Below, piece after piece: positions 51,907 to 62,860 of a DNA stretch of 64,000 bases. The translations under genes and the position numbers were made by a program. This DNA is from an uncultured Gemmatimonadales bacterium. GTDB taxonomy: Bacteria; Gemmatimonadota; Gemmatimonadetes; Longimicrobiales; RSA9. The stretch is from positions 2,048,001-2,112,000 of the forward strand of contig OY970192.1 in assembly GCA_963708135.1 (NCBI GenBank). The letters run 5' to 3'. The notes under the pieces were generated by a model. The model was not told the origin of the DNA. It did not search any database and was given only the letters and a program-made list of their open reading frames with translations. The first letter of the stretch is position 1. Every line of letters starts with the position of its first letter.

Positions 51907-52578
51907 TTACGCCGCGTCCTGGTTCCTCCGGCGCCGCCCGGCGAATCCCAGCAGACCGCTGAGACCGGTAGCGAGGAGGATCACCGACGCGGGTTCCGGG
52001 GTCGTCGTCGTCGCAGTAAAGAACCCCGTGATCTGCGTGGTGTTGTCCGGCGGCAGCGAGGTGTTGTTGGCGAGCACCGTCAGCGTCCCGCTTCCGCCCC
52101 CCGGGACCGCGCCCGTGAACGAACGGGTGAGGGTTCCCGTCGAGAATGCCAACTCGACCCCGCCCGTGGTCGGATCGGTCGAAGCCGTCCCATGGATGAG
52201 CGCATAGAACGTCACATCCGGTGAGGACACCGTGGGTGTGAGGAAGGTGAGCAGGAGCGTGAACGGCTCGTTCACCGCGAGTCCGCTCGCCGCGTTCAGC
52301 GTGATCTCCCCGAAGTCGCCGGTCGTTCCATTGATCGCCAGGTCGCCGTTCGAGGTCGTACCATTGAAGTCGACCGGGCTCAGACTCGTGTACTCGAGAG
52401 TCGCCCCGCTCGTGGTGGTGAAGACACCCGTGTTCTCCACCGGCGTGCAGCCAAGGGAGAAGCAGGCCAGGGCGTTCCCGACGATCAGGATGTCCTGCGC
52501 TCGGGCCGCGGTCGCGCTCGCGACTAGCGCGATCACCCCGAGCGCTACGGGTCTGGCGGTTCGTAAGAGTCCCCTCAT
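51907..52578 (-). CDS. PEP-CTERM sorting-domain protein A
   Basis: Signal peptide ending ARAQD; Thr-rich; TTTTPEPAS + TM + RRRR. Confidence 0.92.
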   Translation of the reverse strand: MRGLLRTARPVALGVIALVASATAARAQDILIVGNALACFSLGCTPVENTGVFTTTSGATLEYTSLSPVDFNGTTSNGDLAINGTTGDFGEITLNAASGLAVNEPFTLLLTFLTPTVSSPDVTFYALIHGTASTDPTTGGVELAFSTGTLTRSFTGAVPGGGSGTLTVLANNTSLPPDNTTQITGFFTATTTTPEPASVILLATGLSGLLGFAGRRRRNQDAA

Positions 52579-53228
52579 ACCGTTCCTCCCTCCGCTGTAA
52601 ATTCGGGGCGGCGCTCCTGCCTCTCCCCGTGCTGTGCCTGCGGCGCGGCCAGAGGCGCAGGCTCCCTCTCGGTGTTCGCCGTCGGCGGTGCCGACGACGC
52701 CCGGCCGGTCTTGTGGATCAGCAACGTCTGCTGCCGGTCGCGCGCTCGCTGGCGCGTCCTCGCCCACCGGCGCGCCCAGCGGAACCCGACCACCGCTGTC
52801 GCGGTCGTCATGACGATATACGCCGCCAGAGCTCCGGCCGCTCTGAGGACGGAGAGATCGTAGGTGTGTCGCGCCCTCGGCACGACGCTCCGCCGCAGCT
52901 GTACCGCGTCCAGCGCGAAGCCGCCGGCGACTACGATCAGGGCGAGCGCGGCGATGGCCGACACGAGGACCAGCAGCTGGAAGCCGCGCCGATGCTCGAG
53001 CGTCAGCGTCAGGAACATCGCCAGCACCACGGCGAACACCGGCATTGCCAGATCGCCGCTCAGCAACCCGACCATGCCGACTCGCCACTGCACGCTGCCC
53101 AGGTGGACGGACAGGCCGGTGGAGAGCGCAAATTCCCAGAGCGGCACGACCATCAGAACCGCGCAGAGCAGGTACAGCGGCAGCGCGAGCACTCTGACGG
53201 GCCTGGGATCGCTGGCGAAGCTGGTCAC
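52575..53228 (-). CDS. 4-TM membrane protein A (HpsJ-like by inference)
   Basis: Four hydrophobic segments; LGSVQW and FALD motifs shared with 62136-62636. Confidence 0.7.
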   Translation of the reverse strand: MTSFASDPRPVRVLALPLYLLCAVLMVVPLWEFALSTGLSVHLGSVQWRVGMVGLLSGDLAMPVFAVVLAMFLTLTLEHRRGFQLLVLVSAIAALALIVVAGGFALDAVQLRRSVVPRARHTYDLSVLRAAGALAAYIVMTTATAVVGFRWARRWARTRQRARDRQQTLLIHKTGRASSAPPTANTEREPAPLAAPQAQHGERQERRPEFTAEGGTV

Positions 53229-53328
53229 TCGACACTCCCGACAAATAGAAACCCCGGCACCCCGCCGGCTTCGTCCGTGGGCGCCCGGACACGGGCCGTC
53301 TGTTCACGCGTACGCGTTGCCTCGCTCA

Positions 53329-53344
53329 AGCAACAGCCGTGCCT
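53329..53344 (-). promoter_or_regulatory. sigma54 promoter AGGCACGGCTGTTGCT
   Basis: Near-consensus GGCACG-N4-TTGC about 100 nt upstream of 53228. Confidence 0.75.
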
Positions 53345-53451
53345 TGGCAGGCCCGGAATCGGAGCCTTGCTGGATGCACACGCGGCCAATGCCTTGCGTC
53401 GCGCCCCCGTCCGCTCGGGGGACCGCTCGGCCGTGGAGGTCTGGCCACGTG

Positions 53452-53469
53452 TGTTGTACCGGACCTACA
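53452..53469. promoter_or_regulatory. candidate enhancer site TGT-N12-ACA
   Basis: TGTTGTACCGGACCTACA about 110 bp upstream of the sigma54 site. Confidence 0.5.
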
Positions 53470-53497
53470 GCAGAAATCGGCGTGCGCTGCTTCGTCG

Positions 53498-54131
53498 TCA
53501 GCTGTCCAGGATCGCGCGTACCTTCGTCAGCAGCATGTCCACGGCCACCCGGTTCTGGCCGCCCTCGGGCACGATCAGGTCCGCGTAGCGCTTGCTCGGC
53601 TCGACGAACTCGAGGTGCATCGGGCGCACGGTGGCCACGTACTGCTCGATCACCGAATCGGCGGAGCGCCCGCTCGCGGAGGTCGCGGCTCAGGCGGCGG
53701 ATGAACCGCACGTCGGAGTCCGTGTCCACGAAGACCTTGATGTCCATGAGCCGGCGCAGCTCCTGGTCCCAGAGGATCAGCAGCCCGTCCAGGATGACGA
53801 CCTTCCGCGGGAGGGCGGTTTCGGTCTCGGCCAAGCGGGCGTGATGGGTGAAGTCATAGCGCGGAACCTCGATCGGCTCGCCGCGCAGGAGCATCCGCAG
53901 GTGCCGCACGAGCAACCCGGTCTCCAGCGAGTCGGGGTGGTCGTAGTTGATGCGGGAGCGCTCCTCGAGCGGCATGTCGCCGGTGTCGCGGTAGTACCAG
54001 TCGTGGTGGATGACGGTCACCTGCCCTCGCCCCAGACCACGCACGATCTCGCGGACCACCGTCGTCTTCCCGGATCCGCTGCCGCCGGCGACCCCGATGA
54101 CGATCGGCCCGGGTGGGGGCGTCTCGCTCAC
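53498..54131 (-). CDS. udk: uridine kinase, frameshifted near 53670
   Basis: [22 protein letters not shown] | [36 protein letters not shown]. Confidence 0.9.
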
Positions 54132-61228: not shown

Positions 61229-61467
61229 GTGGCTCGGTCCGGCTTCGGGCGCGCATGGCTCCTCCGTACGGTGGAGATGTGGACTGACCTGCGGAGGAGC
61301 TATCCTAGGGGGTGAGCCTCGGCGCTGCAACGACCCGTGCAGGCGCCTGGAGCTCGCGAGCTCACCGGGTGGGTGGATGGCCCCCGACAAGAGAACGCCC
61401 GCGAGCCCGGCATTGCCGGACCCGCGGGCCTGGTCCCTTGTTCGGAAAACTCGGCTCTACTGCGTCG

Positions 61468-62139
61468 TCAGCCGTTCTCGACGTCTACGCCACGACGCCG
61501 ACGACGGATCGCACCGATGCCCAGCAGGCCCGTCGCCAGAAGGATGCTGGAAACCGGCTCCGGCGTCGTCGTGGTCGGCGTGCCGCAGGTCGCCGGATCC
61601 GGCGCGCTGCCGACGTTGCCCGGAGCGCCTGTCGCCAGCTTGATCGAGCAGCTGGTGTTGTTGTAGGCCTGGATGTGGCCGTTGATGAAGTACGTCCCAT
61701 TCGTCAGGTAGGCGCCCACGTCCGTGTTCGTCATGAACGTGAAGGTCAGCGTCTGGCCCGGCATGAGGCCCGTCCCCACCGGCGGCGGAGTCGAGGCCGC
61801 GCAGACCTGCGTCGTCCCCGGCAGGTCCGAACAGTGCGAATCGCTCCCCGTGTACACGAGGAAGTCGTTCGCCGCGCCGGAGCCACTCGCGGTCCCCGCC
61901 GTGAAGAACGAGCCGCCGCCGTAGATCCCGACAGCGGTCAGGACGCCGGCGGCCGACGCTGCGTCGTAGGTGACCGTCATCGTCCATGTGCCCCCCGAGC
62001 CGGTGAGGCCGAAGTCGAAGCACAGGGAGAACCCGGACACGCACACGTCACTCGCGGACCAGTCGGTCGCCCGCGCGCTGGCAGGCACGAGGGCAAGGGC
62101 CGCCGCGACGGCCATTACCGGCAAGAATCGTTTCGTCAT
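61468..62139 (-). CDS. PEP-CTERM sorting-domain protein B
   Basis: Signal peptide ending SARA; Cys/Thr-rich; TTTTPEPVS + TM + RRRRR. Confidence 0.92.
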   Translation of the reverse strand: MTKRFLPVMAVAAALALVPASARATDWSASDVCVSGFSLCFDFGLTGSGGTWTMTVTYDAASAAGVLTAVGIYGGGSFFTAGTASGSGAANDFLVYTGSDSHCSDLPGTTQVCAASTPPPVGTGLMPGQTLTFTFMTNTDVGAYLTNGTYFINGHIQAYNNTSCSIKLATGAPGNVGSAPDPATCGTPTTTTPEPVSSILLATGLLGIGAIRRRRRGVDVENG

Positions 62140-62636
62140 GTCCTAGCCCTCCTCTTAAGGGACCTCAGTGAAAACAGTGCGGCAGCCAGATAGCCGCCTC
62201 CGAACGCCACTCCCATCAGGCTCGTCCGCGCAATGCCTCGCCGAACTCCAACCGCCACCGCCGTCCGGGCACTCGCCCGCAGCGCCAGCGGCACGTCCAG
62301 CAGGAAGACCACGTAGACCCCGAGCACCGCGACCGCCGCGAGGATCAGCACCACGGTCATTGTGACGATCCCCCAGCGGACCCCGCGGGCCAGGAACGAC
62401 CCGAGCATCGCCGCCAATCCCACCGTGAGGACCGGCAACAGCGCGAAGCTTGCCCCGATCGTCGCGAACTCCCACTCCGGCGAACCCAGCCCCAGCGGGT
62501 ACCAGTTCACCAGAATGTCGCCCAAGCCCACCAGCGCGAGCAGAAGACCGAACCAGCCGATGGCCTTCCACGCGGTGTCGGCCGACGGCCGAACGTCAGG
62601 CCGCTTTGCCTGCGGCTCCGGGAGGGTGACTCTCAT
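62136..62636 (-). CDS. 4-TM membrane protein B (HpsJ-like by inference)
   Basis: GWFGLLLAL..LGD....YPLGLGSPEWEFATIG....LPVL..GL; FLLD. Confidence 0.7.
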   Translation of the reverse strand: MRVTLPEPQAKRPDVRPSADTAWKAIGWFGLLLALVGLGDILVNWYPLGLGSPEWEFATIGASFALLPVLTVGLAAMLGSFLARGVRWGIVTMTVVLILAAVAVLGVYVVFLLDVPLALRASARTAVAVGVRRGIARTSLMGVAFGGGYLAAALFSLRSLKRRART

Positions 62637-62743
62637 ACCAGGTCTCTCATCTCCGGCGGGCACGACCGCCGTAGCACAAGCTCTTCCTGGCGCTCATCGA
62701 TTCCGGAGCACGACCGGACCGACGGAACTCGGGAAAGCCTGGG

Positions 62744-62759
62744 TGCAAGGCGCATGCCC
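62744..62759 (-). promoter_or_regulatory. sigma54 promoter GGGCATGCGCCTTGCA
   Basis: GGCAT-N5-TTGCA about 110 nt upstream of 62636. Confidence 0.72.
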
Positions 62760-62842
62760 TGCCAAGTGGTCGGGTGAATGGGACAAACTCCTTGCGGCTC
62801 AATGACAATGACCTTCAACGCAACGCTCCGAGAGACGACACC

Positions 62843-62860
62843 TGTGGCGAGACCGCAACA
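62843..62860. promoter_or_regulatory. candidate enhancer site TGT-N12-ACA
   Basis: TGTGGCGAGACCGCAACA imperfect palindrome about 85 bp upstream of the sigma54 site. Confidence 0.5.

Follow-up and report, generated by a model that had tools for sequence, protein, structure and literature searches.

HpsJ-like membrane proteins accompany PEP-CTERM proteins and exosortase across Gemmatimonadota

Introduction

How a PEP-CTERM protein is handed over to its exosortase, what it is then attached to and by which route it reaches the surface are open questions (10.1101/2024.12.02.626408; the literature is cited here from excerpts). A stretch of 64,000 nucleotides from an uncultured Gemmatimonadales bacterium (contig OY970192.1, positions 2,048,001 to 2,112,000; the window hereafter) contains two cassettes in which the gene of a four-transmembrane (4-TM) protein related to cyanobacterial HpsJ is followed by that of a PEP-CTERM protein. 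The original prediction saw in this arrangement a dedicated, translationally coupled membrane partner for each substrate. The question raised by the locus is whether such a partnership is the rule and what the membrane proteins contribute to it. The answer developed below is that HpsJ-like proteins are likely a little-known helper of the PEP-CTERM export pathway and not a private partner of every substrate.

The individual parts of the cassettes are already known. An enhancer together with a sigma-54 site in front of PEP-CTERM genes has been described (Haft 2006, PMC1569441), and control by such elements has been tested for Aquincola pepA (PMC9850573). The locus resembles the PEP-CTERM/EpsH system of the former work in the PEP-TM-basic tails of the substrates, the single exosortase within an extracellular polysaccharide (EPS) locus and the enhancer followed by a -24/-12 promoter (PMC1569441). 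It differs in that the membrane gene comes first in the unit, most substrates of the PEP-CTERM/EpsH system being encoded in single-gene operons (PMC1569441), and in that no regulator exceeds the cut-offs for PrsR and PrsK.

Results

Two cassettes of common layout

All features of both cassettes lie on the minus strand, the palindromic boxes being listed without strand.

Cassette 1
53452..53469, no strand: TGT-N12-ACA palindromic box; sequence match, candidate sigma-54 activator site
53330..53343, minus: candidate sigma-54 -24/-12 element; consensus match, 108 nt from the box
52575..53228, minus: M1, HpsJ-like 4-TM membrane protein, W-R-x-G subtype; 217 aa, profile homology
51907..52578, minus: P1, PEP-CTERM protein; 223 aa, signal-peptide-like N-terminus, ATGA overlap with M1
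51805..51904, minus: GC-rich hairpins 3' of P1, without U-tract; folding z -4.67

Cassette 2
62843..62860, no strand: TGT-N12-ACA palindromic box; sequence match
62745..62758, minus: candidate sigma-54 -24/-12 element; consensus match, 84 nt from the box
62136..62636, minus: M2, HpsJ-like 4-TM membrane protein, E-W-E-F subtype; 166 aa from the ATG
61468..62139, minus: P2, Cys-containing PEP-CTERM protein; 223 aa, predicted Ig-like beta-sandwich, ATGA overlap with M2
61379..61446, minus: long hairpin 3' of P2, without U-tract; folding z -3.53

The layout originally described, with box, sigma-54 site, 4-TM gene, ATGA overlap, PEP-CTERM gene and hairpin, is thus present in full in both copies. 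For M2 an alternative GTG start exists at 62663. P1 and P2 are each preceded by a strong Shine-Dalgarno sequence within the 3' end of the membrane gene, and, judging from the sequence, the membrane and PEP-CTERM genes of a cassette are likely co-transcribed from the candidate sigma-54 promoter. The 107-108 nt 3' of P1 and P2 fold with z-values of -4.7 and -3.5, respectively, and none of 200 shuffled sequences is equally stable; as they lack a U-tract, these hairpins are not classic intrinsic terminators.

At the nucleotide level the cassettes share no real similarity (best blastn E 0.025), in line with the scant identity noted at the outset, and no register was found when their upstream regions were aligned. 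A recent duplication of one cassette was considered and rejected, since the DNA is dissimilar and P1 and P2 are weakly alike, in the tail. The approximately 8 kb between the cassettes (53470-61467) are occupied by unrelated genes.

M1 and M2 belong to a divergent HpsJ-like family

The source genome (5.45 Mb, one contig, 97.65% complete) encodes two HpsJ-like proteins, namely M1 and M2. Compared directly, they are weakly similar (BLASTP E 0.011, hhalign probability 16.5%). A family hidden Markov model (HMM) seeded with M2 and comprising 289 sequences, including two divergent members that the M2 profile itself had found, retrieves M1 at E 2.1e-9 among 50,981 genome frames, while a first, narrower M2 profile did not detect it; in the reverse direction, the M1-family HMM finds M2 at E 1.9e-6. 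By these family profiles M1 and M2 are remote homologues and a divergent branch of HpsJ, so that the homology and HpsJ-like nature claimed for them earlier are confirmed at the profile level.

The family has many members, with 893 cluster representatives at E<=0.001, and all 47 loci with M2 relatives are labelled Gemmatimonadota. Homology of the membrane domain to the cyanobacterial HpsJ and HpsJ-like models NF038305, NF050013, NF050014, NF050019 and PF28006 is detectable: at E<=0.01, NF050013 is matched by 66/76 family members in one set and by 38/51 in another (best 5.7e-12), NF050019 is matched by 13/51, and a precomputed match to PF28006 (named HpsJ) is found on 18/90 M2 homologues. Unlike the cyanobacterial proteins, M1 and M2 are short (166-217 aa), remain below the curated NCBIfam cut-offs (M2 with 20.6/140 and 13.4/60 bits, M1 without a match) and belong to a Gemmatimonadota host with an EpsH/EpsI-type exosortase rather than a cyanoexosortase. 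Two insensitive word-index searches retrieved, for M1, only the query itself and, for an alignment of both subtypes, seven matches without a named cyanobacterial HpsJ; a tblastn search of plasmids with a single family member gave no match. NF050013 and NF050019 carry the NCBIfam names 'cyanoexosortase A-associated' and 'cyanoexosortase C-associated', respectively, names that already connect the HpsJ-like family with exosortases.

The AlphaFold2 model of M2 is a four-helix bundle with a predicted local distance difference test score (pLDDT) of 94. Structure comparison yields no informative match for this model, with no Foldseek match at E<=0.001 and a best VIA hit (Z 12.9) to designed helical bundles that lies within the usual range for helical proteins. 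D40, P47, G51, W55, F57 and G73 (M2 numbering) are common to both subtypes, and most of them sit where helix 1 ends or in loop 1. Between the M1 and M2 subtypes not a single residue is invariant, Glu56 of the M2 type corresponding to Arg48 of the M1 type; an adaptor therefore fits better than an enzyme, and an enzymatic role was rejected, although on weak evidence. Loop 1 is acidic, whereas both termini and loop 2 are basic, and this charge distribution suggests an N-in/C-in topology with loop 1 outside.

The family follows exosortase through the phylum

Genome-wide, two PEP-CTERM tails score above the cut-off, those of P1 and P2 (TIGR02595, 27.6 and 23.2 bits, respectively, against 16), and a tail HMM agrees. 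Both proteins begin with a basic-hydrophobic-AxA segment as judged by eye, and are predicted to be exosortase substrates displayed at the surface. The model of P2 (pLDDT 80) is a beta-sandwich, for which Foldseek gives no match at E<=0.001 and VIA a best hit to an Ig-like Nocardia protein (Z 8.9, root mean square deviation 2.8, 107 aligned residues). The predicted fold is thus Ig-like, and the match does not indicate a function.

The only PF09721 match in the genome is located at C1:2118622, about 8.5 kb from M2 and past the end of the window, within an EPS locus that also contains wza- and wzc-like genes, a sigma-54 activator, a sugar transferase, glycosyltransferases and an O-antigen-ligase-like gene; the predicted tie of the PEP-CTERM genes to an exosortase/EPS locus is thereby substantiated. 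This exosortase scores 154.8 bits with TIGR02602 (cut-off 105.55) and stays below the cut-offs for Exosortase A (XrtA, TIGR03109, 154 versus 208 bits) and for the cyanoexosortases (CrtA 50.7/150, CrtB 29.1/300, CrtC 28.8/225). An EpsI-like open reading frame (ORF) follows 3' of the exosortase, as recognised by eye, and its counterpart in one relative, G009, passes TIGR02914.

The distribution of the three components was compared in two samples, one of 41 genomes, namely this genome (G000) and 40 relatives, and one of 121 Gemmatimonadota genomes at least 90% complete; the counts cover related genomes, and kin are not independent. Among the 41 genomes, exosortase is found in 12, and strong HpsJ-like matches (E<1e-20) occur in the same 12. 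Two weaker HpsJ-like matches stem from G015 (75% complete) and from a contig end in G036, and six rows above E 1e-4 were dropped. PEP-CTERM matches at E<0.005 come from the same 12 genomes and from G036, four weaker rows having been dropped because their regions showed no tail. G036 encodes nine PEP-CTERM genes and an HpsJ-like fragment at a contig end, and no exosortase was found in its approximately 220 contigs.

Across the phylum sample, HpsJ-like genes are present in 37, exosortase in 33 and PEP-CTERM genes in 37 of the 121 genomes. HpsJ-like genes coincide with exosortase in 30 genomes and with PEP-CTERM genes in 32, and 81 genomes have neither HpsJ-like gene nor exosortase. Even inside one family the presence is patchy (f4: 24, 20 and 24 of 55 genomes). 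The seven genomes with HpsJ-like genes and without exosortase are assemblies of 90-480 contigs, five of which have PEP-CTERM genes, and the three exosortase-only genomes show a weak partial match, a split match and a partial match in a more distant genome, respectively. HpsJ-like genes thus track the exosortase/PEP-CTERM system across Gemmatimonadota.

Gene neighbourhood and the one-to-one question

All 89 HpsJ-like genes of both samples, G000 left out, were inspected for their neighbours: 55 have a PEP-CTERM gene next to them, 17 an exosortase or epsI gene, and 64 at least one of these. Runs of the type xrt-epsI-hpsJ(-PEP) are recurrent. The enrichment of the family beside PEP-CTERM/exosortase genes, which had been set beforehand as a test of the original prediction, is thus present. 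The order of genes depends on the subtype. M2-type genes have the PEP-CTERM gene downstream in 23/33 cases, and in a further set of 47 loci chosen by the M2 motif, which is biased towards this type and shares a few genomes with both samples, it follows directly in 40. The 56 M1-type genes more often have it upstream (20) than downstream (8), with a divergent arrangement in a further 4, so that cassette 1 represents a minority order. Among 27 direct HpsJ-to-PEP pairs, seven overlap by ATGA or GTGA and two more by 8 nt.

Strict pairing, in which every PEP-CTERM substrate would have its own dedicated, translationally coupled membrane partner, holds in this genome, where both PEP-CTERM genes have a 4-TM gene upstream, and agrees with the similar numbers of HpsJ-like and PEP-CTERM genes (1-5 each) in the 12 exosortase-positive genomes of the 41-genome sample. 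Other counts speak against it. The phylum sample comprises at least 206 PEP-CTERM matches versus 60 HpsJ-like matches, and the PEP-rich genomes G101, G111, G132, G125 and G074 have PEP-CTERM/HpsJ-like counts of 30/1, 41/1, 24/2, 11/1 and 10/1, respectively, which are unchanged at a loose threshold. In the complete genome G101, one of 24 PEP-CTERM genes examined (of 30) adjoins an HpsJ-like gene, without any further small 4-TM gene being flagged in front of those examined; in the regions fetched from G036, none of the nine PEP-CTERM genes has an HpsJ-like neighbour, two or three of them lying near contig ends. Together with the small share of overlapping pairs and the often reversed order, these counts refute a dedicated, coupled partner per substrate as a general rule and render it an improbable explanation of the family, though it could still apply to a small number of substrate families, for instance the one to which P2 belongs.

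Seven loci (L037, L044, L049, L125, L126, L128 and L134) carry a tandem of two HpsJ-like paralogues ahead of a single PEP-CTERM gene. In the tree, the distal copies form a group of their own, perhaps a sign of a heterodimer. In L020, an M2-type gene lies between near-identical transposase-like ORFs (1939-3213 and 5569-6843, by eye) and has no PEP-CTERM gene downstream.

HpsJ-like subtypes keep their own substrate families

Clustering of 118 PEP-CTERM proteins without their tails, sampled mostly around HpsJ-like genes, results in one cluster of 59 members with 3.8 Cys per 150 aa, which contains 51/56 of the partners located downstream of M2-type genes. The nearest HpsJ-like gene is M2-type for 58/59 members, the remaining one having none in its locus. 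P2 belongs to this Cys-rich cluster (E 1.2e-19 in hmmsearch with --max; the default filters miss it). For a second cluster of 18 members the nearest HpsJ-like gene is M1-type in 18/18 cases and in four arrangements, with 14 PEP-CTERM genes upstream (one of them second in tandem), two downstream, one convergent and one divergent. P1 has one relative, a 60% identical PEP-CTERM protein in G002, whose gene is situated upstream of the best-scoring relative of M1 (34%) and hence in reversed order compared to cassette 1. In a quick tree of 137 HpsJ-like proteins the clades track the partner clusters. The subtypes thus keep their own substrate families, even after rearrangement.

A tentative extension of this linkage is that HpsJ-like proteins are substrate-selective adaptors of Gram-negative exosortases, each subtype binding one PEP-CTERM family at the periplasmic face and passing it on to exosortase/EpsI.

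All 18 M1-linked PEP-CTERM proteins contain an aromatic-C-V/I-D-like motif (L135-L138, L140, L142-L144, L152, L154, L155, L172, L015, L041, L054, L061, L070), which to our mind is reminiscent of thioester-domain adhesins.

A locus-wide box and sigma-54 promoters

In its strict form, the pair of box and sigma-54 site occurs four times in the 5.45-Mb genome, always within 13 kb of this locus, compared to about 0.45 expected from the site counts. These four are the two cassettes and both directions from a single box between wzc and the activator gene (C1:2114458-2114475, equivalent to L002:4459-4476), where two divergent sigma-54 sites serve the wzc-wza genes and the activator gene, respectively. 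The extended box is found 34 times genome-wide and nine times in C1:2.10-2.16 Mb; a sigma-54-like site stands beside 7/9 of the latter versus 5/25 elsewhere. Two sigma-54 activators are encoded in the locus (C1:2114601-2116208 and C1:2157641-2159257), each with a box just upstream. The box is likely a sigma-54 activator binding site. As it heads other EPS operons as well, a cassette-specific enhancer was rejected.

Upstream of M2-type genes the pair is found in 17/74 cases with the exact and in 39/74 with the relaxed box, compared to 1.5% and 3.1%, respectively, of windows drawn at random from these loci, and upstream of M1-type genes in 6 and 8 of 59, respectively (M1 and M2 themselves included). 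The relaxed pattern was derived from sites already seen, and the exact count is the safer one. N12 is the commonest box spacing (34, versus 6-20 for others). The known PEP-CTERM box is a 17-nt motif ending in TTTACA about 63 nt (32-92) from the promoter (PMC1569441), whereas the box found here is an 18-nt palindrome 84 and 108 nt away, in which only the ACA end is alike. The anticipated sigma-54/PrsR-type control is supported in its -24/-12 elements but not in its regulators, with 0/54 matches above the PrsR cut-off (TIGR02915; local activator 312.5 versus 502.6) and 0/64 above that of PrsK (TIGR02916).

These observations bear on the main alternative, in which HpsJ-like proteins would take part in EPS assembly, modification or export without ever touching a PEP-CTERM protein, the adjacency reflecting a co-regulated EPS module with a common sigma-54 promoter. 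The nine boxes, seven of them with a sigma-54-like site, agree with it, as does Nostoc hpsJ, which resides in the hps polysaccharide locus (Npun_F0077, PMC10581220) and whose deletion is said to alter polysaccharide composition (second-hand, PMC5702739). Furthermore, the number of HpsJ-like copies (1-4) does not scale with that of substrates (1-41), and exosortase and EPS genes travel together, so that co-occurrence cannot separate the two roles. A pure EPS function leaves unexplained why paralogues far from the EPS locus adjoin PEP-CTERM genes in four orientations and why each subtype keeps its own substrate family, and we consider it rather doubtful.

A further reading is a sensor in place of PrsK, by which the membrane protein would signal to the local sigma-54 activator whether its PEP-CTERM partner is present or has been processed: no kinase exceeds the PrsK cut-off, no kinase gene is seen beside the local activator, and in four loci (L029, L034, L077 and L117) HpsJ-like genes without PEP-CTERM neighbour lie near response-regulator/kinase-like genes, as judged by eye. 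Yet there is no signalling domain, the cytoplasmic parts of the M2 model are short, any of 64 kinase-domain matches in the genome could act in trans, and the direct xrt-epsI-hpsJ runs suggest a processing role. A sensor is thus very unlikely.

Neighbouring genes

The following features of the window lie outside the cassettes.

62992..63816, minus: Wza-like polysaccharide export gene, final gene of the EPS/exosortase locus, which extends past the window
57859-59655 and 59675-61390, minus: multi-heme cytochrome c-like protein and RNB-domain exoribonuclease, seemingly unrelated to the cassettes

Directly downstream of cassette 1, a lipoprotein-like ORF with three Big_2 Ig-like repeats is found (50512-51573, minus strand), and similar-looking lipoproteins occur in the EPS locus and in locus L115. 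At approximately 53500-54200 (minus strand) lies a gene presumably related to uridine kinase, as we assume from its P-loop motif; by eye, its reading frame changes within a short run of G near 53670, which may be an error of the assembly.

Discussion

Four points are established here, namely how the genes are arranged, that the membrane proteins are homologous, that they co-occur with exosortase and that their subtypes are linked to substrate families. On this basis, we assign a probability of roughly 55% to HpsJ-like proteins being a non-catalytic accessory of the exosortase pathway that is co-expressed with its preferred substrates. In such a pathway an activator from the EPS locus would bind the TGT-N12-ACA box and thereby switch on the EPS operons and both cassettes together, and the ATGA overlap and the internal Shine-Dalgarno sequence would couple translation in both cassettes. 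After Sec export the substrate would hang by its C-terminal helix, and the HpsJ-like protein would hold or present it to exosortase/EpsI via D40, P47, G51, W55 and F57 on its predicted periplasmic face. Exosortase/EpsI would then cleave the substrate, leading to its attachment to the EPS layer or the envelope. A genome would keep 1-4 HpsJ-like paralogues, each tuned to a preferred substrate family, and other substrates would be served in trans or not at all.

Several observations weigh against an accessory role of this kind. Of the 89 HpsJ-like genes, 25 have neither a PEP-CTERM nor an exosortase/epsI neighbour, some of them standing beside response regulators or unrelated genes, and in PEP-rich genomes most PEP-CTERM genes lack an HpsJ-like neighbour. 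The Nostoc deletion phenotype mentioned above points to EPS synthesis, and most known exosortase systems, as described in the excerpts of PMC1569441, are presented without such a gene. Within the linkage itself, the quick tree does not resolve M1 as the sister of its best relative in G002, one member of the M1-linked cluster stands alone in G101, and the association could be plain operon inheritance among kin. Finally, loop 3, which is expected outside, is not depleted of Lys and Arg.

Other accessories encoded next to exosortases, namely EpsI (TIGR02914), the CrtB-associated protein (TIGR04533) and the partner of Flavobacterium XrtF, adjoin the enzyme. HpsJ-like genes, on the contrary, are found more often beside substrates (55/89) than beside the enzyme (17/89) and are multiplied into subtypes, and no match of the proteins to the models of these three accessories was reported in the scans. 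For cyanobacterial HpsJ, neither sigma-54 control nor subtype-specific substrate coupling was found in the literature searched. The open-access literature likewise yielded no paper joining HpsJ with PEP-CTERM proteins or exosortase, nor exosortase with Gemmatimonadota, and only a passing mention of PEP-CTERM in Gemmatimonads; the main text of the CrtB paper, in the excerpts available, does not mention HpsJ.

As far as regulation is concerned, the finding amounts to a lineage version of a control that was already known. A small membrane protein whose occurrence follows that of exosortase within the phylum, and which pairs with substrate families by subtype, is a concrete candidate for a missing part of the pathway, for which this genome offers a minimal set of a single enzyme, two substrates and their two partners. 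If an accessory role is true, the cyanobacterial motility gene hpsJ would be linked to protein sorting. Should HpsJ-like proteins moreover act as adaptors, a layer of cognate adaptors would be added to a pathway thought to need only tail and enzyme, and the HpsJ family would gain a function in cyanobacteria too.

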